This document shows positions 8,433 through 33,452 of a stretch of 64,000 nucleotides of DNA, piece by piece. Source of the stretch: Calditrichia bacterium (GTDB taxonomy: Bacteria; Calditrichota; Calditrichia; JAJRVZ01). The position numbers and the translations under genes were made by a program. The stretch is from assembly GCA_963777955.1 (NCBI GenBank), contig CAVZSQ010000019.1, positions 128,001-192,000 on the forward strand. The letters are read 5' to 3'. Position 1 is the stretch's first letter. Each line of letters begins with the position of its first letter. The notes beneath the pieces are model-generated. The model did not search any database. It was not told where the DNA came from and saw nothing but the letters and a program-made list of their open reading frames with translations.

Positions 8433-8486
8433 ATTATAGCAATACCTGGTTAAAGATATGTTAAGATTATGTTAAGATTTTGTGAA
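8433..8486 (-). promoter_or_regulatory. Pho-box-like promoter of the second PiT gene
   Basis: Minus strand TTCACA-N5-TTAACA-N5-TTAACA-N5-TTAACC (exact 11-bp period), then TATAAT 9 bp downstream. Confidence 0.8.
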
Positions 8487-8606
8487 ATTAATGATCCATC
8501 CCCCTGATCCCTTTCCCCGGTGCCCCATACGCTTGTGCAGAGTATTACAGATGCAAGTCGAAAGAATAAAGCCAGGGGACTAATGGAGGAATGGTTCGGA
8601 TGAATC

Positions 8607-9623
8607 TTATTTACGTAAAATAGTTCTGTTATGTAATAAATTAGCGCAGCAAAAGCGGCAGAAACAGGCAGTGTTAATACCCAGGCGGCTACAATTTTGC
8701 CGGCAATTCCCCAGCGGACTGCTGATAAACGGCGGGTAGCCCCGACACCCATAATGGCCCCGGCAATGGTGTGCGTGGTACTGACGGGAATTCCCATTAA
8801 TGCAGTACTGATCAGGACGATTGACCCCCCGGTCTCGGCGCAGAATCCGCCCATCGGTTTAAGATGAGTCAACTTCATGCCCATGGTACGGATGACATTC
8901 CATCCCCCCAGTCATGGTTCCCAGACTGATCGCGCCGTAGGCGGTTAAAATGACCCAAATGGGGATATAAAATCCCTGTGACTTGTCATACATCCACGGG
9001 GGTATATCGACCGTGCTGGTAAACATCAGGATAACCATGATACCCATTGTTTTCTGGGCGTCGTTCGTTCCATGTCCAAGACTGTACAAAGCCGATGAGA
9101 CCAACTGGCCAATCCTGAAAACATGGTCGACCTTTTTATTTGACCAATCCCTGAACAACCAATTCACCATTATCATCAACAGTAAGGCCAGCACCAGGCC
9201 GAGTGCCGGTGATAAGAAAATAAAAATGACTGTTTTATATATACCGCTCATAATCAGGGATTCACTGCCAGTTTTTATCAGAGCAGCCCCGATTAAGCCC
9301 CCGATCAGCGCATGAGATACGCTGATCGGCATACCGTACTGCGTGCATAGATGCGTCCAGATTATAGCACTGAGCAGCGCCGAAAAAATCAGGGTATTGG
9401 AAACCACTTTAGGGTCGACGATTCCTTTACCGATTGTAGTGGCCACGGCATATCCGAATAAAAAGGCCGCAATAAAATTGAACATGGCTGACCACAGCAC
9501 GGCCTTTTTAGGCGTTAATACTCTGGTCGATACGACCGTGGCAATCGCATTGGCGGCATCATTCATACCATTAAGAAAATTAAACAGCAGGGCTATAAAG
9601 AGAAGGATCAGGATGATAGTCAT
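8607..9623 (-). CDS. Inorganic phosphate transporter (PiT family), first copy; frameshifted
   Basis: Same PiT motifs; frame break at the C-run near 8905; probable true stop near 8607. Confidence 0.87.
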
Positions 9624-14458: not shown

Positions 14459-15830
14459 ATGATTAATCCGCATATTTTTCGTGAATACGATATTCGCGGC
14501 GTGGTAGACCGTGATTTGAACGATGAAGTGGTCTACCAATTAGCACAGGGATTCGGTACCTACCTGCGGCAGCAGCAATTAAAAAAAATCTCGCTGGGCG
14601 GTGATGTCCGCCTTTCCACGGAACGGTTTCGCGGCATACTGATCAAAGGATTCAGGCAGGTCGGCATCGATGTGATCGACATCGGTATCGTGCCGACTCC
14701 GGTGCAGTATTACAGTATGTATAATTTGCCGGTTGACGGCGGCCTGATGATCACCGGCAGCCATAATCCGGCAGAATATAATGGTTTTAAATTGACGGTT
14801 CAGAATGCTCCTGTTTACGGGGCTGAAATTCAGAAAATTAAACTGATTATCGAGGCGGGAAAATTTGCCTCCGGCCAGGGCACAGTCGAAAAGACAAATC
14901 TGATCCCGGCCTATATCGAGCATATAAAAAAAGATATAAAGATAAAAAAGAAACTAAAAGTCGTACTGGACTCGGGGAATGGTGCCGCGGCTCTGGTGGC
15001 CCACCGCTTATTCAAAGAACTGGGAGTGGAAACTGTTGACCTGTTCGACACACCTGACGGCCGTTTCCCCAATCATCACCCTGATCCGACTGTGCTGGAA
15101 TACCTGCATGACTTGATCGAATCCGTTCGAGCAGACCCACGCCGATCTGGGCATCGCTTATGACGGTGACGGCGACCGTCTGGGAGTTATCGATGAACAC
15201 AGCCAGGTGATCTGGGGCGACCGCCTGTTGATCATTTTTAGCCGCGATATTATCCGGCGTCAGCCCGGAGCAAAAGTTATCTTTGAAGTAAAATGCTCGC
15301 AGGCCTTGCCGGAAATGATTGAAAAATTTGGGGGTCAACCAATCATGTGGAAAACCGGTCATTCCCTGCTGAAGAAAAAAATGAAAGAGACCGGAGCACC
15401 CCTGGCCGGGGAGATGAGCGGACATTTATTTTTTGCCGACCGTTATTATGGTTATGATGATGCTATTTATGCGTCAGCCCGACTGGTAGAGTTGCTCTCC
15501 CATGGTTCCAATCCATTATCCGCCCTGCTCTCGGATGTTCCGCAATATTTTTCGACTCCGGAAATCAGGGTGGACACGGTCAATGATGAAGAGAAATTCA
15601 AAATAGCGCAACAGGCCAGGGATTATTTTTCAACCCGCTATGAGGTTATTGCTATAGATGGAGTACGCATTCTGTTTGGCGATGGCTGGGGACTGGTACG
15701 GGCTTCCAATACGCAGCCGGTACTGGTTTTACGGTTTGAAGCAAGGTCAGCTCAACGCCTGGAAGAGATTAAAAATATGGTCATATCCAAACTAAAAGAA
15801 TTTGGCAAAATAGAGATCAAGAAGTCATGA
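14459..15830 (+). CDS. Phosphomannomutase/phosphoglucomutase (AlgC-like); one frameshift near 15140
   Basis: FREYDIRG, TGSHNP, DGDGDR (shifted frame), GEMSGH and RASNT motifs. Confidence 0.9.
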
Positions 15831-17730: not shown

Positions 17731-18576
17731 CTAATTCAAATCTATATACCCATTAATATGCTTACTCTTATCGATAATGTGATTATCCGCGTCAACGACA
17801 GCACCATGACAGTTATTGCAACTTGCTTCGACATCGATGTGCCCCATCGGCGGCAGTAAATGGCAACTACCGCAGACCGCCTGACCTGATCCGGCTTGTG
17901 TCCAGTCCATTTCCTGATTATTGCCCAGCATAGCATCGGTTTCATAGAAATCCGGATTGGCACTGGCTGATTTTCTAAAGATAAAATTCCCATGACAATA
18001 GGTATTACTGCAGGATGCCGTAGCATGATCCCAGCGCGGGGATATCTTGCCCTGCCAGCTGGCCATTCCGCCAAATTGTACGTTAATCCCTTCCTGTTTA
18101 TCAATATGATCAGGATCATCAAAACCGGTGAGTGTGGATGACACAGATCACAAGTTCCGGGTGTAGGCTGTGCTCCAGGTATCGCCGCTGAGGTGAATCT
18201 GATGTGCACCCACACCGATTGCCGTTGTAACCGTATCCCCCATCAAATCCTGCGGAGGAGCCCAGGAAGTGAGGGCCAAAACCGAGGCATTACTATTACC
18301 GTGACAGAGGTTGCATGCTTCCATGCCAGCCGTTTCGCTGTGACAGGCATAACAGGAAGCACCGCTGGAACCACCCCGGTAATCGCTGCCATGGCAGGTG
18401 ATACAGGATTCATAGCCGGCGGCCTTGACTTTATTGCCATGGAATTCCGCTGAACTGAGCGTATTCCAGTCCGCCGGATGAGTGACACTGGGGGGGGGTG
18501 TTATTTCTTCGGTACAGGACCAGATCAGTACCACTAAGAAAAGACTGGCAAAAATAATTAATGCTTTCACAGTCAA
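17731..18576 (-). CDS. Multiheme c-type cytochrome lipoprotein with CxxxxCH/CxxCH domain (about 7 hemes); interrupted by compensating indels near 18150
   Basis: LIWSC lipobox-like signal; CITCH, CYACH, CNLCH, CDLCH (shifted frame), CSNTYCH, CGSCH, CNNCH. Confidence 0.8.
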
Positions 18577-18669
18577 ACCTCGCTTATATAATTTAATGAT
18601 TTTGAATTATTTTCAAAAAAATTCAAAAGATAACCTCACAAACTTTGATTGCGATCTTTATCATTCTGC

Positions 18670-20583
18670 TCAGTTTGTTTTTGTATAAGCCGTATATTCT
18701 TCCGGATGATGATGCCGGAGATCTTCCTCGCTGATTTTACCGTCCAGCCAGGTCAGGTTCATGGGATATTTTTCCGGATGATAAATTACAAAGAACCAGT
18801 GCCAGATAAATATAGCCAGGGTGGCCAGCCAGGCTTCGAAATAATGGATAACTTCGGATGTTTCAAACATCCAGGTCGGCAGATAGTTCATAAAAAATTC
18901 AGGAAACCATAATACCAGACCGGTGAAGGCCATCACCGCAGTACCCCAGATCAAAGCCAGATATTCTGCTTTTTCGGTATAATCCCAGCGGCCGAAGCGG
19001 GGACGGTGCTCAGAGAAACCCAGATAATATTTCATATTCTGCCAGAATCCGGTAACATCGGAAATTTGCGGACGTAAGGCCGATATTTCCTTTCTGCCCT
19101 GGCGATGAAATAAGAAATAAACCAGTTGAATCAGCGATATACTTATCAGTATAACCGCGCCGATCCGGTGCAGTACTGAGCGCAGAGACTCGGTCATTCC
19201 GGCAGAAACCAGTAAACGTACCCAACCGGCATCAGGAAATTTTAGGGCAAAACCTGTTATCACCAGAATAAAAAAACTGAAGATCAGTAAAAAATGCTGG
19301 TACACTTCAAAAGAGCGAAAACGCTGGTATAAACGGTCCTGTTTGCGGGCCTGCCGTTTTTTACGTATATAACTTACCAGGATAATCAGGTTATGCAGAA
19401 CCATGCTGCCGACAATGACAATAATCAGCCACATATAGACGGTTCGTGCATAAAAAGTTACCGGATTACGTTCGGCCAGATTCTTGGGATGTACAGCAAT
19501 ACTGCTGAATTCCTGGCTGATGTTATCATGACACTTGCTGCAGGTTTTTTTCAGATTAGCCGGATTCACACTCGACTCAACCGAGGATTGCTCGCGGATC
19601 GCATGGGTCTCATGGCAACTGGTGCAGTTGGCGGCATCGACAGATCCTTTTAATATAGCCAGACCGTGATAGGTCCGGTTATAGGAAGCGAAGCGCTCGG
19701 CATCTAATCCGAAGCGCGCCATCATTGCCGGCGAAGAATGACATTTGGCGCAGATCTGCGAGGATAAATTCAGACGGTTGGTAATCGCGTCAATTTCCTG
19801 AGGCGACTGAATTTTATGTTCCCCGTGGCAATCATTGCAGGTGGGCGATTCAAAATGACCGCGTTGTACGGCCCGCCAGTGGATACTCTGCAAATATTCC
19901 GCCTTCACCTGCTGATGACAATGACCGCAGGTTTCGCTGCGGTTTAATTTGTTAAAACTGGAGCGCGGATCGGACATTATATAAATGGCGTGAGAACCAT
20001 GACAGTTGGTACAAGTGGGTGCGCCGCGGGCTGGATCTTCGCGCAGGATCCTGGCATGCACACTCTGCTGATAACCGGCCACCGGTCCATCCCCCTGGTA
20101 ACCCAGATATTCAATTACCCGCGGATCCAGATGGCATTTACCGCAGGTAACAGCCATGTTCAGGGGATAGATTGTGGATGCAGAATCAGCAGCCGGCAGC
20201 ATATAATGACTGCCGTGGCAATCCTTGCACTGGGCCGGAGATATATTTTTTCCCCCTGCCGAAGTAGCATGGATACTCCCGGCATATACTTGTTGTACAT
20301 CCTCATGACAACTGCTGCAGTTGACCGGGGGTAATTCCGATTCATGTTCGGGACTCTTGACAGTACTGTGGCAATCCACACAATTGAATCCGCCATGAAT
20401 CGATTTTTCGTATTTGCCCTGATCTACATATAAGGAGATTTCGGTACTATCATCGATACTTTTAGACAGACCCGAGTCGGCATGACATTGTAAACAATCT
20501 TCAACTGATTGGCCGTAGACAAATGCCGTTGAGAATAATCCGCAAATAAATATGAACCGCTTGATTTTTAACCTCCTAATCAT
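18670..20583 (-). CDS. CbcL-like quinol oxidoreductase: 11-heme periplasmic domain fused to a cytochrome b membrane domain
   Basis: 11 CxxCH motifs, then TM helices with His ligands (YQH, LHR, IHY, WHW) and a YTEKAEY-type motif. Confidence 0.82.
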   Translation of the reverse strand: MIRRLKIKRFIFICGLFSTAFVYGQSVEDCLQCHADSGLSKSIDDSTEISLYVDQGKYEKSIHGGFNCVDCHSTVKSPEHESELPPVNCSSCHEDVQQVYAGSIHATSAGGKNISPAQCKDCHGSHYMLPAADSASTIYPLNMAVTCGKCHLDPRVIEYLGYQGDGPVAGYQQSVHARILREDPARGAPTCTNCHGSHAIYIMSDPRSSFNKLNRSETCGHCHQQVKAEYLQSIHWRAVQRGHFESPTCNDCHGEHKIQSPQEIDAITNRLNLSSQICAKCHSSPAMMARFGLDAERFASYNRTYHGLAILKGSVDAANCTSCHETHAIREQSSVESSVNPANLKKTCSKCHDNISQEFSSIAVHPKNLAERNPVTFYARTVYMWLIIVIVGSMVLHNLIILVSYIRKKRQARKQDRLYQRFRSFEVYQHFLLIFSFFILVITGFALKFPDAGWVRLLVSAGMTESLRSVLHRIGAVILISISLIQLVYFLFHRQGRKEISALRPQISDVTGFWQNMKYYLGFSEHRPRFGRWDYTEKAEYLALIWGTAVMAFTGLVLWFPEFFMNYLPTWMFETSEVIHYFEAWLATLAIFIWHWFFVIYHPEKYPMNLTWLDGKISEEDLRHHHPEEYTAYTKTN

Positions 20584-21478
20584 CAACACTGTGCTGGTGG
20601 CATTCAATACAGACATTGCGGGCATAGGCATCGTTATGACAACTCAGACAATAATCCAGATCCCCTTCAGCCTGACGTTTGTGCAATCCGCCATTCCGGG
20701 GATTGGTCCAATTGGCATAGGCATGATTGCGCGGCATGACCATTTCACGCTGATGACACTCAATACAGAATGCGCCTTCCTGATGACAGGTAAGGCAATT
20801 ATCCTTATTGGTCCGGACATCGATTCCATGATTATTTTTATAATTCAGCGGATGAGTCAAGCGGTCCAGATTATCCCCTTCATGACAATCGGTACAGTAG
20901 GAATTCTGATGACAGTGTACACAAGCTTCTTTATTCAGCTGTGCGGTCGGTCCATGATCCTTATTCCAGCCGGTACGGTGATCCGCAGGTTTAAACGGAT
21001 GGTCCTGTTCATGGCAGACCAGGCACTTTGCCTTATCTTCATTATAATCCATACTGCCATGACATTCGCGGCATTTATTTTCGGCAGGAATTTGTCCGAC
21101 GCCGGCCGGGGATTCCCGCAATTCAATCCCGGCATGACAGACCTTACAATCCTGATCCGATTTAACATGTAGCTGGTGAGCAAATTTCGCCCGCAACTGG
21201 ACTATCCGCGGTACCTCTTGTGCCGCGTCCGGATCAGTATGACACACCTTGCATTCGGTATCTTTTTCATCGTGGCAATTGTAGCAGGTCTGCATCGCAG
21301 GCAGCAGATTGTCCTGGGGTGATTGACTGGCGGATACCGGCTGATGACAATCGGCACATTTGGCGCCGGCTTGCTGCAGGTGGAATTTATGCGAAAAGAT
21401 CAGATCTGCTTGCTGGGAAAAACCCGATAAGATCCAGCAGGCCAAACAAACTATAACGAGAATTAGCAGTCTTTTCAT
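20576..21478 (-). CDS. Periplasmic dodecaheme cytochrome c
   Basis: Sec signal; 12 CxxCH motifs; two c7-like FxHxxH tri-heme modules at the N-terminus. Confidence 0.88.
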   Translation of the reverse strand: MKRLLILVIVCLACWILSGFSQQADLIFSHKFHLQQAGAKCADCHQPVSASQSPQDNLLPAMQTCYNCHDEKDTECKVCHTDPDAAQEVPRIVQLRAKFAHQLHVKSDQDCKVCHAGIELRESPAGVGQIPAENKCRECHGSMDYNEDKAKCLVCHEQDHPFKPADHRTGWNKDHGPTAQLNKEACVHCHQNSYCTDCHEGDNLDRLTHPLNYKNNHGIDVRTNKDNCLTCHQEGAFCIECHQREMVMPRNHAYANWTNPRNGGLHKRQAEGDLDYCLSCHNDAYARNVCIECHQHSVDD

Positions 21479-21497
21479 AGTGGTACACCTTCTCATT

Positions 21498-22688
21498 TTA
21501 CCAGATAAAATGAATATGATTTAAAAGACGATTATCGGAGTCCGCAAAGCGGTTATTCAACCACTGGTACTCCAGATCTGCCTTCCAGTGTTTGGTGAAG
21601 TTGTAATGCAACCGGACCGTGTTGGCTAACTGGTTTTCATATTCATAGATTTCTTCAAAACGGTAGCGGGTATAGTTCACACCAACCGAAGCAATCAGGT
21701 TCTTCCAGATTTCATAGCCATAATCGAACATCACCCCGACCTGATCGCCAAGGTCTCCGGTCTCATAAAGCAGATTGATCGCGCCGCGATTGTCATTAAC
21801 TCCCAGCATCAAACGCTGTCCCGAGGCCTCTTCCAGAGAGATATACTGGACTCCGGCCGATAAACCATAGTCGGCGGTCAAAGCATAATTCGTATTCAGA
21901 CCGGCCTGGGTATATGGTTCGATCTCAAAGATTTTGAAATAAGAATCGGCATAAATTTGTGGAGTCTGTTGTTTGGCAAAAACACTGACAGCCAGCTTAT
22001 TGGAGGGGGCGTACCTGGCCGAGGCATACAGACGATGCAGGGTCGAGTTCAAAATATCATAATGTGTCTGCAGGATGAATTGGATCTTTTTAAGTGAATA
22101 ATTATTCAGATTCAAACCCACAATCTGCCATTGGTTCTCATTTTCCCTTAACCTCTGCAGGTAAGCCAGCTGCACATTAGTGTTGTAAAAATGACGATAG
22201 GTCAACGCTGAACCATAAACCGTGGCAGCATCGAATTCGTATACTTTCATTTCACGGAACAGATTGGATTCCACGCCGCCGAAGATCTGCCAGCTGAGAT
22301 CGGCCACTGGTTTCAGGGTCAGGTTTACACCATCCAGGCTACCAAAGGGAATTCCGGCATGCAGGAACTGTCGGCCGATTTCGAAATCCAGCAAATTATC
22401 AAAAAGATTACTGGCTGAGACCGACATCCGGTAAGCCCGCCAGGGCAGCTGACCCGGTTGCGGCTGGCTCAGCCAGCGCATGGAAACATTCAGGTTCAGA
22501 TTGTTCCAATTTTCGGCCAGGGCAGAGAAACGCAGGAATTGATAAACATTGAGAGCCGACTTTGATCCTTCCTGTTCATAGACGTACAGGGAGGAAGTAT
22601 AGCGGCCGCTCGTTTCAATGGTTTGCGCTGTAATACTATGAATACAGAGCAACGTGGCGATGAGTGAAATCAGATAATTTTTCTTCAT
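21498..22688 (-). CDS. Outer-membrane beta-barrel (porin of a porin-cytochrome conduit)
   Basis: Signal peptide; alternating aromatic/polar strands; GRQ..GxxDG motif; C-terminal aromatic residue (HIHFIW); first gene of the cytochrome operon. Confidence 0.75.
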   Translation of the reverse strand: MKKNYLISLIATLLCIHSITAQTIETSGRYTSSLYVYEQEGSKSALNVYQFLRFSALAENWNNLNLNVSMRWLSQPQPGQLPWRAYRMSVSASNLFDNLLDFEIGRQFLHAGIPFGSLDGVNLTLKPVADLSWQIFGGVESNLFREMKVYEFDAATVYGSALTYRHFYNTNVQLAYLQRLRENENQWQIVGLNLNNYSLKKIQFILQTHYDILNSTLHRLYASARYAPSNKLAVSVFAKQQTPQIYADSYFKIFEIEPYTQAGLNTNYALTADYGLSAGVQYISLEEASGQRLMLGVNDNRGAINLLYETGDLGDQVGVMFDYGYEIWKNLIASVGVNYTRYRFEEIYEYENQLANTVRLHYNFTKHWKADLEYQWLNNRFADSDNRLLNHIHFIW

Positions 22689-22745
22689 AGGCAAAACCTA
22701 TTGTTAATTAAAGTTATTGAGGCATTTAAAACTCTCTATAAAACG

Positions 22746-22761
22746 TCAAATATCATGCCAA
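22746..22761 (-). promoter_or_regulatory. Sigma54 (-24/-12) promoter of the porin-cytochrome operon
   Basis: TTGGCATGATATTTGA on the minus strand, about 60 bp upstream of the start. Confidence 0.7.
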
Positions 22762-23031: not shown

Positions 23032-23079
23032 AAAAAAAAGACCTTCCGGAATAATTCTCCCCCAGCTCCGGAAGGTCTT
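23032..23079 (-). terminator. Rho-independent terminator of the 9-heme lipoprotein gene
   Basis: AAGACCTTCCGGA...TCCGGAAGGTCTT followed by a T-run on the minus strand. Confidence 0.8.
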
Positions 23080-23111: not shown

Positions 23112-24824
23112 TTACCAGTTACTGGCTACAGCTTTCCGATCCGAAGTCAGAATGGCAGCACCGGGAACTTTATTATCCATCAAATGCAAATAACTCTGCT
23201 GTAATAATTGTACAGCATAATCGGGATTATGAACACCATGACTGCCGTCCTCCTCGACGAATATTAAATTCCATCCTGCTTCCCGCTGGATGTAGGTGGA
23301 ATTGTTCGTATCGCCCAGAGCCTCAGCCAAGGATATACCGCCGGTAGTGTCCAGGCCGGTAGTGATCAAGGCATCTTCCAGCATAGTCATCAAGCCGGCA
23401 ACTTCGTCCTGAACCCCTTCTACCTGGTTATCGCCATCAAAATCTTCCAGGGCCATAATATCTTTAAACGATGATATAGTACCATGGCAATTGGAGCATG
23501 CTAACACAGTGGGTTCAAAGGTATGACCGGTCTTGGCCGGTTCCGTTTCGCTCACATATTCAACCCGGTTTAAATGGCAGGTTTTGCAACTATTCTGGAC
23601 ATACAGATGGGAAGGTTGTGCCCAGACAAAATCTTCCGCGGCAACAGCCTGGTAGCCGGTTTTGGCAGCCATCATATCCCCCTGCACGCTGCCATGAGGT
23701 CCAAAGTTAGACCGGCCAATGGCAATTTGCGATTCGCCTCCGCGACGGGCATGGTGACATTGCATACAAAGTTTGCCGACACCACCGTCAGTGATCAATG
23801 GAGATTCGCCATTAGCAGTCACCAGCTGAACATCAGCAATGGTCCGTAGCTGCGCCGGATTAGTTGCGTCGTGGGAATCATGACAGGTAGTGCAGCCCAT
23901 CGATTGAAAAGGCGCCACGGTAGTATCCGGTCTGGCGCTTACCGCCCCGCTGCCATAGAATGTACTCAGATCTCCGGATAAACGAACACCCGCGGCAACC
24001 CCTTCATGACAACCCTGGCAAGATACCGCATCGGCTTCGGCCATAGAACTATGAGCAGATTCCTCCCATTCCGAATAATAAGGATGGTGGGTGCCTTCAT
24101 GACATTTCGCACAATTCTCAGCCGACCAGTCAACAGTGTTACCGCCGCCGGTAAGGTGACCTGAAGCGGCACCGTGGCAGTTTTCGCACTGGACGTTTTC
24201 GAACTTGGCAATCGGTGCTTCGTCATAGCCGCTGTTACCCAAAGGTCCCTCATACCCCACGGCATGGCAGGGATTGCAGTAGGAAGCCGGATGACCGCTG
24301 CCCTGCAGAGTTGCCCAGGCACCGGCATGACCGGTTTCAGACCAATCGTTATATTCACTGGAATGGCAACCCGAACAGGCTGAGGAACCCACGTAATAAG
24401 GCGTCTGGTATGGTGCATACATCCCGACACCCATAGTACGCAGACCCAGACCTATAAGTTGTCCCCCGACCACATGTACACTCACTTCATAAGCCCCGGC
24501 GTCATCCGGTGCTTTCCAGACAACTGTATCCCCAGTGGCACTGTTAAAAGTACCGCCGGTGGCGAACCAGTTATAAACCAGCGTTCCAACCTGATATCCG
24601 GTTGGAATCGTGATGTCTGCGGTAAATGTTACTTTACCCCCCTGGGCTACAGAATCATTGCCGCTGACATTAATGATCTCGACTGCGATCGTATCGTGGA
24701 CGACTTTCTCGACTTCCACGATCTTCTCTTTTTCCGATTCGCAGGATGCCAGCAACATCAATCCCAGCAAGGCTACCGGAACGATCAGCGCCAGTAATTT
24801 GTGCATAATAGAGTTTTTATGCAT
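23112..24824 (-). CDS. Nonaheme cytochrome c lipoprotein with an N-terminal Ig/PKD-like domain
   Basis: LLASC lipobox; Y.W..TGG...V.WKAP...G.Y Ig-like segment; 9 CxxCH motifs; C-terminal helices ending DGSHGVHNP. Confidence 0.85.
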   Translation of the reverse strand: MHKNSIMHKLLALIVPVALLGLMLLASCESEKEKIVEVEKVVHDTIAVEIINVSGNDSVAQGGKVTFTADITIPTGYQVGTLVYNWFATGGTFNSATGDTVVWKAPDDAGAYEVSVHVVGGQLIGLGLRTMGVGMYAPYQTPYYVGSSACSGCHSSEYNDWSETGHAGAWATLQGSGHPASYCNPCHAVGYEGPLGNSGYDEAPIAKFENVQCENCHGAASGHLTGGGNTVDWSAENCAKCHEGTHHPYYSEWEESAHSSMAEADAVSCQGCHEGVAAGVRLSGDLSTFYGSGAVSARPDTTVAPFQSMGCTTCHDSHDATNPAQLRTIADVQLVTANGESPLITDGGVGKLCMQCHHARRGGESQIAIGRSNFGPHGSVQGDMMAAKTGYQAVAAEDFVWAQPSHLYVQNSCKTCHLNRVEYVSETEPAKTGHTFEPTVLACSNCHGTISSFKDIMALEDFDGDNQVEGVQDEVAGLMTMLEDALITTGLDTTGGISLAEALGDTNNSTYIQREAGWNLIFVEEDGSHGVHNPDYAVQLLQQSYLHLMDNKVPGAAILTSDRKAVASNW

Positions 24825-25421: not shown

Positions 25422-25458
25422 TGAGCGTACCTTGTCGCAGTGGGACATGAATGTGACA
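25422..25458. promoter_or_regulatory. Putative enhancer (bEBP) sites
   Basis: TGAGCGTACCTTGTCGCA and TGGGACATGAATGTGACA. Confidence 0.6.
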
Positions 25459-25503
25459 AATCCCTTATTTAATCTTACCAGCTTTTTGCTTATATTTGTC
25501 ATT

Positions 25504-26979
25504 ATGTTCAGGACCATCAACAGTAAATTTATTTTCTTCACTATCATCTTTATCATGCTAAGTGTTGGTCTGCCCACTACTTTTTTGATCCGCCAGTTCA
25601 GGGCTAATTTTGAACAACGTACCAGCGCCTTGCTGGAAACCACCATGGAAGTGGTTCATGGCGACGTAGTCAACGTAATGTTGAAATATGATCACAAAAG
25701 GGTTCAGGACATTATCGATAAAATAATGCGCTATAAAATCATCCGGCATCTGCGTTTTTTCGATACGGTGGGCAATATACGATTTGCTACCGATACCACC
25801 GAGATCGGTAGAAACATCGATGATGTAGATAAGGGACACGTCCAGATCGGCGAAATAGATCACAAGGTTATCCTGTTACTGGAAAATAAAAAAGTATACA
25901 CCTCCACCCGTGCTATTGTAAATCTGCCGGAGTGTCAATCCTGTCACGGGATTAATCCGGTCATAGGTTATCTGGATATCGATGTTAATCTGACCCGGGC
26001 CGAGAGATATTTTTATACCGGCTCATTTCATATCATCTTTCTGGCTATCGCTATAGTGCTGTTGTTATTTTTCGGATTTTATTACCTGTTCAACCGCTTC
26101 ATCAGAAAACCGCTGGACCGTTTAACCCTGGCGCTTAACCAGGTGGATGAGGGACAGCTGGATACCCGCCTGCCGGCAAAAAAAGCAGATGAAATCGGCA
26201 TTCTGGAACGACAGTTCAACACCATGGTTTCCAACCTGCAGGCTTCCCAGCAGAAGATCGAAGAACTGCACTTCGAACAACTGCAGCGGGCGGATAAACT
26301 GGTAACCCTGGGTGAATTGGCCGCCGAAATGGCTCATGAGATCAACAACCCTGCCGGTATTGTCATGTCCCGCGCTGATTATCTGCACATCAAGGCTGAT
26401 GAGAATTTGGCCTTAAAAAAATACCAGGATGACCTGCAGGTGATCATCAATCAGGTCAATAAAATATCGCGGATTACCGGTAATATTTTAAAGTACAGCA
26501 AAAAATTACCCAAGCAATTTCATACTGTGGATTTAAAGCAGGTTCTTGAAGAAAGTCTCAATGTACTGGAACCGCGCCTGGCTATGAAAAAAATTGATCT
26601 GCACAAAGAATTCAAAGATAATGATTGTCAGATTTCAGGCGATGCCCAGCAACTGGAACAGGTTTTTACCAATTTGATCAACAATGCCGTTGACGCGATG
26701 TCCCAGGGCGGATTTTTAACCTTAAGCCTGGAGCGCAATGAACAGCATCAAATTCAAATTAAAATCAGCGACAGCGGTAGCGGTATCAGTGCGGATCTGC
26801 TGGACCAGATCTTTACTCCATTCTATACCACCAAGCCCCCCGATAAAGGTACGGGTCTGGGACTGTATATTGTCAAAAATATCTGCAAAAACCATAATGC
26901 CGATATTCATTGTACCAGTTCACCCGGCCTGGGGACTACTTTTACGGTAACTTTCAGAGGGAATGATTTGAAAAAATGA
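25504..26979 (+). CDS. HAMP sensor histidine kinase with a periplasmic heme-c motif
   Basis: Two TMs flanking CQSCH; HAMP; AHEINNP H-box; N, G1, F and G2 boxes. Confidence 0.9.
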   Translation: MFRTINSKFIFFTIIFIMLSVGLPTTFLIRQFRANFEQRTSALLETTMEVVHGDVVNVMLKYDHKRVQDIIDKIMRYKIIRHLRFFDTVGNIRFATDTTEIGRNIDDVDKGHVQIGEIDHKVILLLENKKVYTSTRAIVNLPECQSCHGINPVIGYLDIDVNLTRAERYFYTGSFHIIFLAIAIVLLLFFGFYYLFNRFIRKPLDRLTLALNQVDEGQLDTRLPAKKADEIGILERQFNTMVSNLQASQQKIEELHFEQLQRADKLVTLGELAAEMAHEINNPAGIVMSRADYLHIKADENLALKKYQDDLQVIINQVNKISRITGNILKYSKKLPKQFHTVDLKQVLEESLNVLEPRLAMKKIDLHKEFKDNDCQISGDAQQLEQVFTNLINNAVDAMSQGGFLTLSLERNEQHQIQIKISDSGSGISADLLDQIFTPFYTTKPPDKGTGLGLYIVKNICKNHNADIHCTSSPGLGTTFTVTFRGNDLKK

Positions 26980-28346
26980 AAAAGATCTTGATCGTTGACG
27001 ACGAAGAAGATATGCTGCAAAGTTTACGCAAAATTTTATTGCAGCGGCAGTCCTACCAGGTAACGACCATAAAGGACAGCAGGCAGGCTTTACAACTGGC
27101 CGGTCATGAAAAATTTGATCTGATTATAACCGATTTCAAAATGGGCGATATTTCCGGAATCGATATATTAAAAGCGGCCTCCGGTAAATTTCCCGATGCC
27201 AAGGTGATCATGATCTCCGGGTACGGCACAATCGAAGCCAGCGTGCAGGCGATGCAGGAAGGCGCCTTCGATTTTATCGAAAAACCATTTACCTCTAAAA
27301 AATTATTCGCCTGCATTGACCGCGTATTCGGACCGCAGCTTGAAGCAAAAACCTTCGGCAGTGATGCCGGGGGGAAGGTGGTCGAACTGCCGGGTATTAT
27401 CTTTAAAAGCAAACAGATGTCCGAGATAATAACTCTGGTCGGCAAAATTTCTTCCGGAGATTTAAATATACTGCTTACCGGTGAAAGCGGCACCGGCAAG
27501 GAATTAATAGCACGGGCAATCCATAATCTGAGCAAGCGCAGTATCCATCCCTTCGTGCCGGTGAACTGCGGTGCCCTGCCGGAGAATCTGTTTGAAAGTG
27601 AATTATTCGGCCACGAGAAAGGGGCTTTTACCGGTGCCATCAAGACCAAACCGGGATTGCTGGAATTTGCCAACCAGGGTACTTTTTTCTTTGACGAGAT
27701 CGGCGATCTCAGTTTGACCCTGCAGGTAAAACTATTACGCATGCTGGAACAACGCCAGATCCGGCGGGTCGGCGGCCAGAAAGAAATTGATATTGATGTA
27801 AGGATTATTGCCGCCACCAATAAGCAACTGGCCGAAGCCGTCAAAGAAAACAAATTTCGTGAAGATCTGTATTATCGTCTGAATACCATGCAGATCGAGA
27901 TTCCACCCTTGCGCGAACGGACTGATGATATTCTGCCGCTGGCCAATAATTTTCTCGCCGAGTTATGCCGCAAGAATGAAAAAATCGTTACCCGCTACTC
28001 CTCCGAAGCGGAAGAATCCCTCAAATTATATAACTGGCCGGGAAATGTCCGGGAGTTGCAGAATATGATAAGCCGGGCTTATTTTCTCACCTCCTCCCGG
28101 GTAATTCAAAAAGCAGATTTACCGCTGCCGGTCAGCGAGAAAACTTTTTATATCGATCAGCAGATGTTTGATCTATCCTATAAGCAGGCCAAAGATGCGG
28201 TCCTGGAAAAATTTGAAATCGAATATCTGACCGGCCAGTTGCGTAAATATAAAGGTAATATTTCCATAACTGCTGCCAAATGCGGAATTGACCGGCGTTC
28301 GATTCATCGCTTAATTAAAAAATACAACATTATGTATAAAGACTAG
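26976..28346 (+). CDS. Sigma54-dependent (NtrC-family) response regulator
   Basis: Receiver domain, GESGTGKE, GAFTGA, WPGNVREL, Fis-type HTH. Confidence 0.95.
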   Translation: MKKILIVDDEEDMLQSLRKILLQRQSYQVTTIKDSRQALQLAGHEKFDLIITDFKMGDISGIDILKAASGKFPDAKVIMISGYGTIEASVQAMQEGAFDFIEKPFTSKKLFACIDRVFGPQLEAKTFGSDAGGKVVELPGIIFKSKQMSEIITLVGKISSGDLNILLTGESGTGKELIARAIHNLSKRSIHPFVPVNCGALPENLFESELFGHEKGAFTGAIKTKPGLLEFANQGTFFFDEIGDLSLTLQVKLLRMLEQRQIRRVGGQKEIDIDVRIIAATNKQLAEAVKENKFREDLYYRLNTMQIEIPPLRERTDDILPLANNFLAELCRKNEKIVTRYSSEAEESLKLYNWPGNVRELQNMISRAYFLTSSRVIQKADLPLPVSEKTFYIDQQMFDLSYKQAKDAVLEKFEIEYLTGQLRKYKGNISITAAKCGIDRRSIHRLIKKYNIMYKD

Positions 28347-28356
28347 GGGGTGGATT

Positions 28357-29865
28357 ATGAAACTTAAGATTCCTGCTTCCATGCGAAATTGGATTTCATT
28401 AATCGGCACTATGATTGCGCTGATCTGCTTTTTTATGATCGTTTTCCTCTTCTTTATCACCATGATCCTGGGTCAGGGCGGCTCTTATATCGGCCTGGTA
28501 ATTTATGTGCTGTTACCGGCGGTGATGATTATGGGATTATTGTTAGTCCCCATAGGTATGTATTTCCAGCTGCACCGTCGAAAAAAATCGGGACAAATTC
28601 AGGAGCTGACCTGGCCGCGGCTAGATTTAAATGACTTGAAACAACGCCGCTTCTTCTTCAACTTTGCCATTGTAACTACTATTTTTCTGTTTATCTCGGC
28701 TGTAGGCAGTTATGAAGCTTTTCATTTTACCGAGTCGGTCCCCTTCTGCGGTACCATTTGTCATGAAGTCATGAAACCCGAATATACGGCGTACCAGCAT
28801 TCGGCCCATGCCCGCGTGGCTTGCGTCGACTGCCATGTAGGTGAAGGAGCAAACTGGTACATGCGGTCGAAATTATCCGGATTGTACCAGATTTACGCCG
28901 TGACCACCAACATCTTCCCCCGGCCCATTCCGACTCCGGTTAAAAACCTGCGCCCGGCCCGCGAAACCTGCGAACGCTGCCACTGGCCGCAGAAGTTTTA
29001 TGCCCAGAAATTCAGGGCCGAACGGCATTACCTGAATGACGAGCAGAATACCGAATGGGATTATCAGCTGATTATGAAAATCGGTGCAGAATATTCAGCC
29101 CTCGGACTGGTCGAAGGTATTCACTGGCATATCAATCCCGATGTGAAGATCGAATACCTGGCCAATAATGAAAAAAATCTGGAGATACCGTGGGTACGCT
29201 ATACCGATCAAAAAAATAACCGGGTGATCACTTATCTTAACGAAGAAAATCCCATCGATCCCGACACGGTCAAAAACCAAAACATACGCACCATGGATTG
29301 CATGGATTGTCATAACCGGCCATCGCACAGTTACAAACCGCCTGCATTTTTCGTCAATGAGGCGCTGACTTCCGGTTTAATTCCCAAAGAATTACCCCAG
29401 ATCAAATCACTGAGTATGCAGATCTGTGCCATTGAGTTCAATCAGACCGATTCCGCCCGGCAGTACATTCAAAAATCTGTCAGCGAGTTCTACCAGAGTA
29501 ATTATCCGCAAATTTATCAGGAGAAAATGCAGCTGGTTGAGAAAGCCTGGACTGGCTTACAGGAAGCGTATCTGCAAAACATCTTTCCGGAAATGAAAGT
29601 GCGCTGGAATGCTTATCCCAACCATATCGGACATGTAGAATTTCAGGGATGTTTCCGCTGCCATGATGATAAACATAAAAGCTCTGACGGGTATACAATC
29701 GCCAAGGACTGCAATCAGTGTCATCATATCATTGCCCAGGGTAGTCCCGGCCAGATGTCTATTTCAACTCTGGATAAACCCCTGGAGTTTAAGCATCCGG
29801 TTGATGTGGGCGATGCCTGGCGGGAAGGATACTGTACCGATTGTCATACAGGCTTAAATCCCTGA
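28357..29865 (+). CDS. ImcH-like NapC/NirT-family membrane cytochrome c (7 hemes)
   Basis: 3 N-terminal TMs; CGTICH plus 6 CxxCH; LRPARETCERCHWP, GIHWH and CMDCHNRPSH motifs. Confidence 0.85.
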   Translation: MKLKIPASMRNWISLIGTMIALICFFMIVFLFFITMILGQGGSYIGLVIYVLLPAVMIMGLLLVPIGMYFQLHRRKKSGQIQELTWPRLDLNDLKQRRFFFNFAIVTTIFLFISAVGSYEAFHFTESVPFCGTICHEVMKPEYTAYQHSAHARVACVDCHVGEGANWYMRSKLSGLYQIYAVTTNIFPRPIPTPVKNLRPARETCERCHWPQKFYAQKFRAERHYLNDEQNTEWDYQLIMKIGAEYSALGLVEGIHWHINPDVKIEYLANNEKNLEIPWVRYTDQKNNRVITYLNEENPIDPDTVKNQNIRTMDCMDCHNRPSHSYKPPAFFVNEALTSGLIPKELPQIKSLSMQICAIEFNQTDSARQYIQKSVSEFYQSNYPQIYQEKMQLVEKAWTGLQEAYLQNIFPEMKVRWNAYPNHIGHVEFQGCFRCHDDKHKSSDGYTIAKDCNQCHHIIAQGSPGQMSISTLDKPLEFKHPVDVGDAWREGYCTDCHTGLNP

Positions 29866-29975: not shown

Positions 29976-30500
29976 TCATCGCAAATTAATTTGGTCTGAA
30001 CAGACGGTACAAAAACTATCCCCTTTCACATCCAGATCGTCGACCGTATTGGAACTGGCCATGACGCATTTATAATTATGACAATGGCGCAGATTCTGTA
30101 AATGGCCATATTCATGAATGGTTTCTTTGACTAAGCGCCCGATCAGTTTATGTTCATCGGCCGGCAATCCGTAAAATTCATTGATCAACCGGCAACTGGA
30201 TACGATTGCCGCGCTGCCCCCCAGACCGGCCAGACCGAAGACAAAGGTCAAAACGGGGATATATAAATCCAGGCTGGTATAGATTATGACTTTATTTTGC
30301 TGTGTGGAAGGTCTGCTGACCTTTTTAATAATTTTTATCGCATCGTATTGTTCCCGGTTCTGATCGTAACAATCCTGAACCGTTAGTTCCGTATCGTAGC
30401 GGGCAGCTATTAAACCGCTGCGCTCACACAGCAGGGAGATCAGATTATCGAGCAGATTATTATGATTGAATTGGACGGTAATAATTTCGAGTTCAGGCAT
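29976..30500 (-). CDS. Archaemetzincin-family (M54) Zn metalloprotease
   Basis: FVFGLA, HEYGHLQNLRHC, CVM Met-turn, FCxxC. Confidence 0.85.
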   Translation of the reverse strand: MPELEIITVQFNHNNLLDNLISLLCERSGLIAARYDTELTVQDCYDQNREQYDAIKIIKKVSRPSTQQNKVIIYTSLDLYIPVLTFVFGLAGLGGSAAIVSSCRLINEFYGLPADEHKLIGRLVKETIHEYGHLQNLRHCHNYKCVMASSNTVDDLDVKGDSFCTVCSDQINLR

Positions 30501-31851
30501 TTTCCGGGCGTTTTATTCCGTACTTCTGCAATTTTTTATAGATGGTAACCCGATCTATGTCCAGTACTCGGGCAGCATTAGAAATATTCCAGTTATTTTT
30601 TTCCAGTACACTGATAATATGCGCTTTTTCAACATCGTCCAGTGACAGGGTGGTTTTAAACGAAGTCTGCAATTCAACATGGTTAAGCAGGAAATCTGCG
30701 CCGTTCAGAACATCGTCCTGTGTTACCACCATAGCCCTTTCGATGGCGTTTTCCAGTTCCCGCACATTCCCTTTCCAGGGATATTTCATCAGCATTTGCA
30801 AAGCAGCAGGGGCAATGCCTTCCACCGCTTTGTTCATTTTGGCGCGGTAATGGGCGATAAAATGCTCAACTAATTCAGGAATGTCTTCCGGCCGCTCACG
30901 TAAAGGTTTAATGTTGATCGTATACACCTGTAAGCGGTAATACAGATCTTCGCGGAATTTTCCATCCTTCACGAATTCTTCCAGATTGGTATTGGTAGCC
31001 GAAATCACCCTGAAATCCGATTGAATGATTTCATTGCCGCCCAGACGGGTGAATTCCCTGGTTTCGATTGCCCGCAGCAAATCCACCTGCGTTTTGGGTC
31101 CGATAGTACCGATCTCATCCAGGAATAAAGTTCCGCCGTTGGCAATTTCTAGTTTCCCTTTGCGCCGGTACATAGCCCCGGTAAAGGCTCCTTTTTCATG
31201 TCCGAATAATTCACTCTCCAGCAGGGTTTCGGTCATCGCCCCGCAATTAACCGTAACGATGGGAAAGAAACGTCGATCGCTCTGGGCATGAATGGCCTGG
31301 GCTACCAGTTCTTTGCCGGTGCCGCTTTCGCCGCGGATCATCACCGTTGTCGAAGTCTTAGCCACGGTTTCGATCAGTTTCTTGACCTCGGCAATATAAC
31401 GGCTTTTGCCGATTATCTCCGGCGGCCGGGTCAACTCTTCCAGACTTCCTTTCAAACCGATGTTCTCAATGGTCAGGCGCCGCTGTTTTTCCGCATTACG
31501 GACCAGATGACTTAAACTATCGGGATCGAACGGCTTGGTGATATAATCAAAAGCCCCTTCTTTTAAAGCCTGTACGGCAGTATCTACCGCTGCGTAGGCC
31601 GTGATCATGATTACCACGGCATCTTTGTCAATTTCTCTGATGCGCCGGTGCAATTCCATGCCATCCATTCCCGGCATTTTAATATCGATAAAATAAATAT
31701 CCCAGCGGGTCGTACTCATTTTGTTCAGGGCTTCTACCGCATCCCGCGCTGTATCGACCTGATAACCATCTTCCGTAAACCAGCCGGACAATGACTCGCG
31801 GACGATTTCTTCATCATCCACTATCAGTATTTTTACATCATTCTTAGCCAT
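30493..31851 (-). CDS. Sigma54-dependent response regulator
   Basis: Receiver domain, GESGTGKE, GAFTGA, HTH. Confidence 0.95.
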   Translation of the reverse strand: MAKNDVKILIVDDEEIVRESLSGWFTEDGYQVDTARDAVEALNKMSTTRWDIYFIDIKMPGMDGMELHRRIREIDKDAVVIMITAYAAVDTAVQALKEGAFDYITKPFDPDSLSHLVRNAEKQRRLTIENIGLKGSLEELTRPPEIIGKSRYIAEVKKLIETVAKTSTTVMIRGESGTGKELVAQAIHAQSDRRFFPIVTVNCGAMTETLLESELFGHEKGAFTGAMYRRKGKLEIANGGTLFLDEIGTIGPKTQVDLLRAIETREFTRLGGNEIIQSDFRVISATNTNLEEFVKDGKFREDLYYRLQVYTINIKPLRERPEDIPELVEHFIAHYRAKMNKAVEGIAPAALQMLMKYPWKGNVRELENAIERAMVVTQDDVLNGADFLLNHVELQTSFKTTLSLDDVEKAHIISVLEKNNWNISNAARVLDIDRVTIYKKLQKYGIKRPENA

Positions 31852-31853
31852 AC

Positions 31854-33452
31854 TCAGGACGCCTTTAATTGTTTAACCGGAATTTTGATGATAAAGGTAG
31901 AACCTTGATTAACTGCTGATTCGACCCAGATTTCTCCGCGGTGCCGTTGCACGATGGCATATACCGCCGAAAGTCCCAGACCCACCCCCTTAACTGCATT
32001 TTTAGTGGTGAAGAAAGGTTCAAATATCTGTGTTTTCAGATCTTCCGGTATTCCTTTACCTGTATCTTTAACATACAGGTATACCGCTTGCTCAGACAAT
32101 TTCAACTCCGTTTTGACCGTGAGCACCCCTTCATTCTCCATTGCTTCCACCGCATTGACGTACAAAGCCAATAAAGCCTGTTTGATCTGACTGTCATCAA
32201 TCTCTATGGCCGGCAGGTCGGTTTGGAATTCACGAATCAGTTTGATATTATGTAATTTCAGATGATGGGCAATCAAGTCGATGGAATTATCAATAACATG
32301 GTTAAGGTCATGGGCTTTGATCTCGATCGCTTCCTGACGGGAGAACAGCAACATATTTTTTACGATCGTACCGCTGCGCTCGCTTTCTGTTTCGATCATC
32401 CGCAGATACTTGAGCATGGCTTCTTTTTCAGGGATAGGTGTATTTTCTTTGATTAATTTTTTCTGGATTAATTTGCTGTAAGTAAGTATGCCGGCGATGG
32501 GATTATTCAGCTCATGGGCTACGGTCGCCGATAATTGTCCCAGTGAAGCCATTTTTTCAATCTGCAGATTACGTTTCTGCGTTCGTTCCAGTTCCTGTGT
32601 CTTTTCCTGAACCCGGTTTTCCAATTGATTGGACCAGCTGGTGATCTCCCGTTTTGCTTCGCGCAGATCCGCAGTCATTCGATTAAAGGAACGGGCCAGA
32701 CTGCCCATTTCATCGCCGGACGTGGATTTAATCTGATAACCGAGATTGCCGTTGGAAACTTCCCTGGTACCAAGGATCAGTCTTTTTACCGGTACATGTA
32801 CAAAAAACCAGATCATTATCCCCACGGTCAGGGCCAGGGCCAGCGTGATGGCAATATTGGTCGAGATCATGCGCGAGCGGTTTTGTTCAACAATAGTATC
32901 CATCTTTTCCAGGGAAAGACTTATGCGCAATAATCCCAGATAACTATCCGCCTGTTGATGCGCATGACAGTCCGCTGTATAACAACTTGGTTCGTTGGCA
33001 ATCGGTCTGACATAAACCATCAGGCGTTTTCCCCGGGCATCAAAAAAAATATGATGCCAGGCTTCGACAGGTTTTTTTCTCAGTTCGCCCGAGGATTCAT
33101 GACAGGGTGAACATTCCCGTTCGGCAAAGTCGGCTGTGCGATTTATTTCTTCTTCGGCAGTCGAGAAGGCAATCCTGCCGGTTTTATCAAAAAGGGTAAC
33201 TTTCTGGATTCCTTCCTTTTGGACGATCCCTTTCATAATGGAATTAGTCGATTCCGTGGCATTCAGCAGCATAGAATTTCTCATAGACCCGGCGACCACT
33301 TCGCTGGTCCGGTAAGCGCATTGGCGGGCGATCTCGGCATATTGCTCGGATTCTGTTTTGATATAATAGAGTGAAAAACCAACGGTCAGGATGATCAGAA
33401 CCACAAAGACAAGCACAAAGAGTTTAAAACTGAGCAGGCGATAAAAATACAT
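31854..33452 (-). CDS. HAMP sensor histidine kinase with two periplasmic heme-c motifs
   Basis: CSPCH and CYTADCH between the TMs; AHELNNP H-box. Confidence 0.9.
   Translation of the reverse strand: MYFYRLLSFKLFVLVFVVLIILTVGFSLYYIKTESEQYAEIARQCAYRTSEVVAGSMRNSMLLNATESTNSIMKGIVQKEGIQKVTLFDKTGRIAFSTAEEEINRTADFAERECSPCHESSGELRKKPVEAWHHIFFDARGKRLMVYVRPIANEPSCYTADCHAHQQADSYLGLLRISLSLEKMDTIVEQNRSRMISTNIAITLALALTVGIMIWFFVHVPVKRLILGTREVSNGNLGYQIKSTSGDEMGSLARSFNRMTADLREAKREITSWSNQLENRVQEKTQELERTQKRNLQIEKMASLGQLSATVAHELNNPIAGILTYSKLIQKKLIKENTPIPEKEAMLKYLRMIETESERSGTIVKNMLLFSRQEAIEIKAHDLNHVIDNSIDLIAHHLKLHNIKLIREFQTDLPAIEIDDSQIKQALLALYVNAVEAMENEGVLTVKTELKLSEQAVYLYVKDTGKGIPEDLKTQIFEPFFTTKNAVKGVGLGLSAVYAIVQRHRGEIWVESAVNQGSTFIIKIPVKQLKAS

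Follow-up and report, generated by a model that had tools for sequence, protein, structure and literature searches.

Gene clusters that encode a porin, a periplasmic multiheme cytochrome, an outer-membrane cytochrome and a bc-type quinone oxidoreductase together are known from the pcc loci (Dester_0351/Theam_0871) and from mtr/mto clusters with MtrH/MtoC (PMC4245776, PMC6295460). Homologs of CbcL/MtrH/MtoC, in which a multiheme N-terminal domain (3 to 23 motifs, with 11-heme members among those tabulated) is joined to a HydC/FdnI-like cytochrome b, lie in mtrAB/mtoAB clusters in several species (PMC6295460), and c-type cytochromes with a formate dehydrogenase cytochrome b-like part also lie in pcc clusters (PMC4245776). 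PCC3 and PCC4 likewise span the whole envelope, and their clusters encode a cytochrome b-like protein of the inner membrane; in PCC3 the median heme numbers of the cytochromes are 21 and 34, and the membrane protein of about 300 aa is separate, and PCC4 has no extracellular cytochrome (PMC5566968). The ExtABCD conduit of Geobacter sulfurreducens combines a periplasmic dodecaheme and small lipoprotein cytochromes with a barrel of 18 predicted strands, in an operon without a quinol oxidoreductase (PMC6148476).

We analyzed a window of 64,000 nucleotides from the genome of a Calditrichia bacterium, an assignment that agrees with the FCB-related host proposed from the sequence. The original prediction was a self-contained cluster of four co-oriented genes for a porin, a dodecaheme, an 11-heme/cytochrome b fusion and a lipoprotein cytochrome. 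All four genes exist and lie on the minus strand, but the lipoprotein gene is broken as assembled and the cluster is larger, reaching upstream past 22761 to about 29865. A quinol oxidoreductase and a conduit in one cluster are a known design, and two features that had been taken as new, 11 instead of 9 hemes and a cbcL gene within a conduit operon, both have precedents (PMC6295460, PMC4245776). Compared with the pcc and mtr/mto clusters, the porin is not MtrB-like (398 aa, no PF11854 match), the host is a member of the Calditrichia, and ImcH-like and OcwA-like genes adjoin. Unlike in PCC3, the cytochromes have 12 and 7 hemes, and the cytochrome b shares one polypeptide with an 11-heme domain. 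The locus shares with ExtABCD the periplasmic dodecaheme, the small lipoprotein cytochromes and a similar number of strands, but its gene order is different. Of the hallmarks of porin-cytochrome conduits (PMC6148476), the periplasmic multiheme cytochrome and the outer-membrane barrel are present, insertion of the cytochrome into the barrel is seen in a model, and two cytochromes with a lipobox were found, one of them in the gene broken as assembled.

The porin and its dodecaheme partner

The gene at 21498..22694 (minus strand) encodes a protein of 398 aa without heme motifs. The AlphaFold model of residues 1-376 (pLDDT 90) has 21 strands, with the C-terminal strand outside the model, and as modeled the protein is a barrel of about 22 strands without a plug domain. 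Its best structural matches are outer-membrane barrels of 18 to 24 strands (Z 18.5); the MtrB chain 6R2Q_B, which has 649 residues versus 398, came at rank 36 (Z 13.9). Pfam and NCBIfam contained no matching family, a search of 48,161 structure representatives gave no close match, although a relative may still exist, and porin profiles matched nothing among PDB sequences apart from one weak stretch of TbuX. The MtrB/PioB family PF11854 matched neither the porin nor anything else in the source genome, which rules out MtrB. DUF3373 was also tried as the porin family and gave no match in 5 genomes, but the controls were silent too, which makes this search uninformative. None of the 80 hits of a broad-profile search was Geobacter-named, and the names in 20 porin clusters were only those of Ignavibacteria, Zixibacteria, FCB or unnamed bacteria; the closest cluster in the Atlas consists mainly of Thermodesulfobacteriota (0.97), with a recognition below the mark. 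A Geobacter-like pcc porin has been reported in Caldithrix abyssi, without being mapped to the present porin gene (PMC6137239). What appears new at this locus, judged against Pfam, NCBIfam and PDB, is the unnamed porin family with its swappable caps. Surveys that rely on marker families are likely to overlook this porin, for which no family model exists.

Directly downstream, at 20576..21496 (minus strand), lies the gene for a periplasmic c-type cytochrome of 306 aa, whose 12 CxxCH motifs confirm the predicted dodecaheme. Its N terminus resembles a signal peptide, and the heme ligands are conserved in 27 homologs. The 12 motifs in 306 aa here and the 11 in the 653 aa of the fusion, with distal His/Met ligands conserved in homologs, are far beyond chance. 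The dodecaheme profile matched the c7 polymers 3OV0 only across positions 20-159, which suggests a c7-like N-terminal half; the DmsE/MtrA decaheme model TIGR03508 gave 18.4 bits, against a cut-off of 192.2.

Complex modeling of the porin with the dodecaheme, carried out without hemes, with self-made alignments and with porin residues 24-398, gave a score of 0.70, compared with 0.00 for the best of three controls, although the score may owe something to likeness with solved MtrAB-type complexes. Of 157 solved complexes, 116 reached the mark set for this score, as did 2 of 215 mismatched pairs. The runs shared at least 73% of contacts, and the pLDDT of the partner was at least 71. In the model, hemes 6-12 are threaded through the barrel, and alternating barrel residues all round face dodecaheme residues 148-297. 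The C-terminal half of the dodecaheme is thus predicted to sit inside the barrel, and the expectation that the 398-aa protein is a barrel able to hold a cytochrome is supported by the two models.

The arrangement is conserved. In 39 of 40 related loci a dodecaheme-type gene comes after the porin, and 37 of the 40 have a lipoprotein cytochrome, all misses being contig edges. The 11-heme fusion is present in 10 of 13 close-type loci (two of the three misses are contig edges), and a genome of the same genus has the identical cap-porin-dodecaheme order. Promoter and terminator scans stayed near their shuffled means (28 versus 24.0 and 16 versus 11.9, respectively).

Quinol oxidoreductases and lipoprotein cytochromes

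The fusion protein of 653 aa is encoded at 18670..20631 (minus strand), with a likely true start at about 20583. It has 11 CxxCH motifs in its N-terminal domain and a cytochrome b561/FdnI-like domain (Pfam PF01292, 48.6 bits versus a cut-off of 30.1) that aligns with FdnI (1KQF_C). H446, H488, H596 and H611 are invariant in all 14 11-heme and all 9 longer homologs (23/23) and are the putative ligands of a diheme cytochrome b. The fusion thereby shares the multiheme N-terminal domain, the FdnI-like cytochrome b and the conserved His of CbcL/MtrH/MtoC (PMC6295460), and its description as CbcL-like held up. Its motif spacing is near that of the tabulated 11-heme protein Oter_2603; Geobacter CbcL has 9 hemes. 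A simple hydropathy scan of the fusion found five hydrophobic helices, one fewer than the six typical of the family, of which members with five or four helices are also listed (PMC6295460). None of the Caldithrix entries located in the table of PMC6295460 belongs to the 11-heme Calditrichia clade. A role as quinol oxidoreductase is predicted, and the source genome contains a menaquinone gene of the futalosine pathway. Genes of the heme-lyase family, for cytochrome c maturation, are present in the genome too.

In the lipoprotein cytochrome gene at 17731..18576 (minus strand), a TGA in frame (18148-18150) leaves two open reading frames, of 142 aa (lipobox IWSC, 3 CxxCH) and 137 aa (2 CxxCH and 1 CX4CH, TIGR01904 over the cut-off). 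A further motif, CDLCH, lies at 18138-18152 in another frame. A near-strain contig (298 nt, 14 mismatches) carries a pair of indels, at 18157 and 18135, that compensate each other, and the indel at 18135 is also present in a contig from a second sequencing run; the depth of both contigs is below 5. Reads from four more runs gave no coverage of the broken site. Together, the motif in the other frame and the indels indicate that the intact gene encodes seven motifs (6 CxxCH and 1 CX4CH). The seven hemes of the original prediction therefore stand for the intact gene, but not as an open reading frame in the assembly. Relatives carry intact homologs with 7-12 hemes. Since 29 of 149 orthologs shared with the same genus are frameshifted in the source assembly and 3 more contain a stop, indels are systemic there, and the break is most likely an assembly error. 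Selenocysteine read-through of the TGA was ruled out by the CxxCH in the other frame and the two near-strain indels.

Two further cytochromes upstream had been overlooked. The first, encoded at 23112..24824 (minus strand), 417 nt upstream of the porin, is a lipoprotein (lipobox LASC) with 9 CxxCH. A terminator-like hairpin at 23046-23065 parts this gene from the porin, an observation that counts against the outward reading of the locus. The best PDB match of its profile was 6I5B (E 1.8e-27), which is OcwA of Thermincola potens (PMC6703420), and the two share, at the level of sequence, nine hemes and c554-like and NrfA-like regions. OcwA resides on a Gram-positive cell wall, whereas the Calditrichia protein is a lipoprotein, encoded beside a porin, that has an additional Ig-like region at its N terminus. 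The substrates of OcwA are solid acceptors, shuttles and oxyanions, including nitrite and hydroxylamine (PMC6703420), and the 9-heme lipoprotein is likely the terminal reductase cap.

The second cytochrome, encoded at 28357..29865 (plus strand), has three N-terminal membrane helices, a NapC/NirT domain (PF03264 over the cut-off) and seven heme motifs at 131, 156, 205, 315, 432, 452 and 493, a spacing that fits tabulated ImcH homologs (for example, 129, 153, 202, 311, 428, 448 and 488; PMC6295460, Table S3). By domain, helices and motif spacing, it was assigned as an ImcH-like inner-membrane quinol oxidase. Between the two, at 25432..28346 (plus strand), are genes for a sensor kinase with one periplasmic CxxCH (HisKA/HAMP/HATPase) and a sigma-54 response regulator (Response_reg/Sigma54_activat), which are candidate regulators of the locus; family-level relatives have this pair beside the locus as well.

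Direction of electron flow and acceptor

The cluster is probably a porin-cytochrome conduit that carries electrons outward from menaquinol to extracellular acceptors, for instance humics or Fe(III)/Mn(IV) minerals. Menaquinol would be oxidized by the CbcL-type 11-heme/diheme-b protein at low potential or, alternatively, by its ImcH-like neighbor at high potential, as in Geobacter, in which ImcH serves for high and CbcL for low potentials (bioRxiv 2021.04.15.440034). From the c-heme domain of the CbcL-type protein electrons would enter the dodecaheme at its c7-like half, and would go from its C-terminal half in the barrel to the 7-heme and the OcwA-like 9-heme lipoproteins, both presumed to be exposed on the surface.

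The conduit could instead serve envelope reduction of sulfur or oxyanions (S0/polysulfide, selenite, nitrite or hydroxylamine) as an electron sink of fermentation, rather than of metal oxides. A rhodanese and a likely selenocysteine cytochrome, always as a pair, are present in 14 of 40 related loci, recalling the rhodanese lipoprotein, selenocysteine multiheme cytochrome and porin of Geobacter extHIJKL/MccSep (bioRxiv 2025.11.18.688581). The cap cytochrome of the relatives has 10-11 hemes, with selenocysteine near the N terminus, and did not match NF040886. Because 11 of 13 close-type loci carry this cap, sulfur chemistry may be the usual job of the family, which counts against an outward metal reading. 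C. abyssi, a cultured species with a sulfur-capped version of the operon, forms sulfide from thiosulfate and S0 when supplied with peptone (PMC5317091), and OcwA reduces nitrite and hydroxylamine (PMC6703420). However, the likeness to extHIJKL is found in relatives only: neither the rhodanese nor the selenocysteine cytochrome is present in the window, and tblastn (1e-8) detected no such cytochrome in the source genome. C. abyssi, moreover, did not respire S0 with H2 or acetate (PMC5317091). For the present locus, we consider this alternative rather unlikely.

Electrons could also flow inward. A partner cell, Fe(II), reduced humics or sulfide minerals would then supply them, via the lipoproteins and the barrel, to the FdnI-like cytochrome b, which would reduce menaquinone in an MtoC-like manner and feed an oxidase or nitrite reductases. 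A heme-copper oxidase is indeed encoded in the source genome and would permit electron uptake to O2, which counts against outward flow. In formate dehydrogenase-N, a cytochrome b of the same fold conserves energy with inward electron flow. CbcL/MtrH/MtoC homologs occur in reducers and oxidizers, MtoC homologs being found in Fe(II) oxidizers, and according to PMC6295460 no sequence feature tells them apart. On the other hand, the ImcH-like gene is 5.7 kb away and PMC6295460 reports ImcH homologs from Fe(III) reducers alone, OcwA acts as a terminal reductase (PMC6703420), and neither RuBisCO nor acetyl-CoA synthase was found in the source genome (92% complete), so that inward flow appears unlikely.

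A decaying remnant, which lost its Sec/rhodanese cap and a 19-heme partner and whose terminal lipoprotein is truly broken, would fit the in-frame TGA and the 19-heme bc gene and Sec cap kept at the locus in four family-level relatives, but is very improbable given the systemic indels, the frame kept in near-strain contigs, the full length of the other five genes and the gene order shared with the same-genus genome.

Distribution and significance

The porin was matched in 46 of 61 genomes searched; plasmid records gave no match. By its own terms, the original prediction would be refuted if this exact operon had already been described in the host lineage, and the literature goes half of that way. 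A pcc-like system in Caldithrix is mentioned in a single passage (PMC6137239), and Cabys_319 (19 hemes), which belongs to the operon as found in C. abyssi, is tabulated (PMC6295460), but a description of the operon itself was not found in the open-access literature. According to PMC6137239, Caldithrix species are not known to reduce Fe(III), a further point against the outward reading; the accepted picture of the Calditrichia is one of fermentation and nitrate reduction.

Tentatively, the locus may belong to a family of wires across Calditrichia and other FCB groups, with a fixed barrel-dodecaheme core and swappable caps. In most Calditrichia the cap would be rhodanese/Sec and would act on extracellular sulfur, whereas the lineage studied here would use an OcwA-like protein, with an ImcH/CbcL two-potential pair, on minerals. 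A profile of the porin would detect the family across Ignavibacteria, Zixibacteria and other FCB groups. With the conduit in three quarters of the sampled genomes, Calditrichia would be candidates for a part in the sedimentary cycling of sulfur, iron and humics and, if the reading as wires with caps is true, a common sediment group seen as fermenters and nitrate reducers would be electroactive.

Genes of the predicted conduit cluster

All four predicted genes lie on the minus strand. The motif counts originally given for the two central ones were recovered: the dodecaheme cytochrome (20576-21496, 306 aa) has 12 CxxCH motifs, and the gene at 18670-20631, a 653-aa open reading frame (ORF) whose true start is likely near 20583 as judged from homologs, combines 11 CxxCH motifs with a cytochrome b domain. 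This fusion aligns with FdnI of formate dehydrogenase-N, has five helices in a hydropathy scan, and carries four His residues (446, 488, 596 and 611) that never vary among the homologs aligned, 14 with eleven hemes and 9 longer ones. Eleven other His residues and a single Met, all as distal ligands, are likewise conserved. The fusion was rightly called CbcL-like, and by its sequence it falls within the CbcL/MtrH/MtoC family as defined. The porin (21498-22694, minus strand, 398 aa) is devoid of heme motifs, and the lipoprotein cytochrome gene (17731-18576, minus strand) is broken as assembled.

The cluster extends beyond the four genes, and two cytochrome genes upstream had been overlooked. The gene directly upstream of the porin (23112-24824) encodes a lipoprotein of 570 aa and nine heme motifs, whose top PDB match is 6I5B (E 4.5e-15 with the single sequence, 1.8e-27 with a nine-sequence profile), described as the surface reductase OcwA (PMC6703420). 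A kinase/sigma-54 regulator pair separates it from an ImcH-like protein of 502 aa (28357-29865), in which three helices are combined with a NapC/NirT domain and with seven motifs whose spacing is that of tabulated ImcH homologs; a division between ImcH and CbcL by potential has been reported (bioRxiv 2021.04.15.440034). At 30493-37275, genes for HmcB/HmcC-like iron-sulfur proteins and for membrane proteins of the NrfD type are flanked by two GcvH-like proteins and by a sigma-54 regulator with a kinase that has both CxxCH and CX4CH motifs; comparable genes lie beside the conduit in several relatives. Two genes at 53320-60913, of 806 and 1650 aa, putatively encode penicillin-binding protein 1C paired with an alpha-2-macroglobulin.

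The barrel and its predicted complex with the dodecaheme

The 398-aa protein had been predicted to be a barrel able to hold a cytochrome. An AlphaFold model of residues 1-376 (pLDDT 90) bears out the barrel, with 21 strands and no plug domain; about 22 strands would be expected once the absent C-terminal strand is counted. Its top structural matches were outer-membrane barrels of 18 to 24 strands (Z 17 to 18.5, rmsd 4.5 to 6). MtrB was only the 36th match (Z 13.9), and membership of the conduit in MtrAB was rejected. No Pfam or NCBIfam model matched the porin family, and no PDB relative was found by sequence. The family comprises 823 clusters at 50% identity, with named members including Ignavibacteria and Zixibacteria; the porin shares 46% identity with a protein carrying the name Caldithrix abyssi, and 14 of 18 loci from species genomes, among them the closest at 81%, have titles with Calditrichota, Calditrichia, Calditrichaceae or Caldithrix. 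The source is thus assigned to Calditrichia.

The capacity to hold a cytochrome is supported by a complex model of porin residues 24-398 and dodecaheme residues 28-306, which scored 0.70 versus 0.00 for the best control, with at least 73% of contacts agreeing between runs and a partner pLDDT of at least 71. Of 157 solved complexes, 116 reach the mark that it passes, compared with 2 among 215 mismatched pairs; for the alignments built in this analysis, these counts are only approximate. Modelled contacts link alternating residues around the whole barrel to dodecaheme residues 148-297, and hemes 6 to 12 are predicted to lie in the lumen, with the c7-like N-half left in the periplasm. The model supports binding without showing it, and its score may stem from likeness to solved MtrAB-type complexes.

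Conservation and modular caps in relatives

The porin profile matched in 46 of 61 genomes (source genome G000 counted; some matches partial or weak). We compared 40 loci from 38 genomes, 13 close-type and 27 distant-type; since kin are not independent, the counts express conservation, not statistics. A dodecaheme-type gene accompanied the porin in 39 loci and a lipoprotein cytochrome in 37, the missing cases stopping at contig edges. The 11-heme fusion was in the operon in 10 close-type loci, 7 of which had a 19-heme fusion in addition; among distant-type loci, a bc-type gene was nearby in 7 and an ImcH-like gene in 10. The exact four-gene order was found only in the window. In family-level relatives, a 19-heme gene is inserted between fusion and lipoprotein; a contig from run X3 spans this junction and lacks that gene. 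Close-type loci also occur in records titled Gemmatimonadota, Cytophagia and Cloacimonetes (L046, L047, L048), two of them with the cap described below, and one distant-type conduit (L076, genome G023) has as neighbors two ORFs that contain 31 and 16 heme motifs.

In 14 of the 40 loci (11 of 13 close-type), the porin is preceded by a cap made of a tandem rhodanese lipoprotein and a 10-11-heme lipoprotein, as at L055:10532-12994, never one without the other. All 17 intact, nonredundant loci examined have an in-frame TGA within G-x-G-[TGA]-G-G of the cap cytochrome, and two homologs have Cys at this position. A 6-bp hairpin begins 12 nt past the TGA, with both sides changed in 4 of 6 pairs; its covariation score was reached by 0 of 500 shuffles (relatedness not controlled), and it agrees with the bacterial SECIS model (PMC13188914). 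SelA was found in 5 of 5 genomes tested. The cap cytochrome is therefore likely a selenoprotein on the same conduit. It had 891 homologs, of which 118 of the best 120 span only 75 to 84% of the query; no NCBIfam family exceeded its cutoff, and the protein was not seen in the examined portion of a review table that counts 119 families. In homolog P0098, the CxxCH...GEG segment recurs at the end of the protein, which hints at an additional TGA and domain repetition. The source genome lacks this cap, which therefore informs on the family rather than on the window.

Precedents and probable direction of electron flow

Both features put forward as novel are already in print: 11-heme members, including Oter_2603, are tabulated in a family of 3 to 23 hemes (PMC6295460), so 11 versus 9 hemes is not new, and neither is a CbcL-type gene inside a conduit cluster. 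MtrH/MtoC occurs within mtr clusters, and pcc clusters with an inner-membrane c-cytochrome like formate dehydrogenase cytochrome b are described (PMC4245776); the family also adjoins mtrAB/mtoAB in several species (PMC6295460). Cabys_319 is listed there as a member, and the 920-aa protein at the operon end in related genome G013 has the same 19 motif positions at a constant offset of one. PCC3/4 were described as whole-envelope conduits (PMC5566968), and a pcc-like system was noted in a Caldithrix MAG and C. abyssi, without an Fe(III) test (PMC6137239). The passages found in PMC5317091 do not discuss the operon, and no description of the Calditrichia operon was found in open-access text. New here are a porin family that has no name, the range of Calditrichia genomes that carry it, and its modular caps.

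The source genome encodes heme-lyase family proteins, a futalosine-pathway menaquinone gene, SelA and a heme-copper oxidase. A second candidate conduit (G000:C18:50256-61406), PCC3-like in heme numbers, comprises cytochromes of 20 and 25 hemes together with a membrane protein and a 602-aa protein with an aromatic last residue, with a rhodanese-like gene nearby. Two near-identical multiheme gene pairs (G000:C3:19109-21199 and C5:8327-10435), putatively NrfH/NrfA, may reflect duplication or strain mixing.

We consider it most likely, with moderate confidence, that the conduit carries electrons outward from menaquinol to external acceptors. A role in sulfur or oxyanion reduction appears unlikely; the relatives' cap resembles Geobacter extHIJKL, whose MccSep is described as a polysulfide reductase (bioRxiv 2025.11.18.688581), and C. 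abyssi was reported to reduce S0 on peptone without respiration (PMC5317091). Electron uptake is likewise unlikely. CbcL/MtrH/MtoC proteins are present in reducers and oxidizers alike (PMC6295460). Neither RuBisCO nor acetyl-CoA synthase was found in the 92%-complete source genome. That the locus is decaying we regard as very improbable, the break in the lipoprotein gene being likely due to assembly error.

The lipoprotein gene had been predicted to encode seven hemes, which is correct for the intact gene; as assembled, TGA at 18148-18150 divides it into a lipobox half with three CxxCH motifs and a half where one CX4CH accompanies two CxxCH. The CDLCH motif at 18138-18152 is read in another frame. 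A contig of near-strain run X2 (298 nt, 14 mismatches, depth 2.1) crosses the site with both compensating indels visible, and one of X1 (depth 4.8) has the second; these came from the first four runs, and four further runs yielded no contig over the site. The assembly is rich in indels: in a same-genus comparison, 149 of 181 long ORFs (20 contigs) had orthologs in the source genome, 29 of these frameshifted and 3 with a stop. Other split or frame-broken window genes (7583-9623, 14459-15830 and 35591-36316) fit such an assembly; that at 14459-15830 is a single 454-aa ORF in related genome G002.

For outward flow, the conduit would work like Mtr and Pcc conduits. Menaquinol would be oxidized through the CbcL-type fusion or the ImcH-like protein, electrons would cross the periplasm on heme domains and then traverse the outer membrane by way of the dodecaheme within the barrel, and the lipoproteins would hand them to external acceptors.
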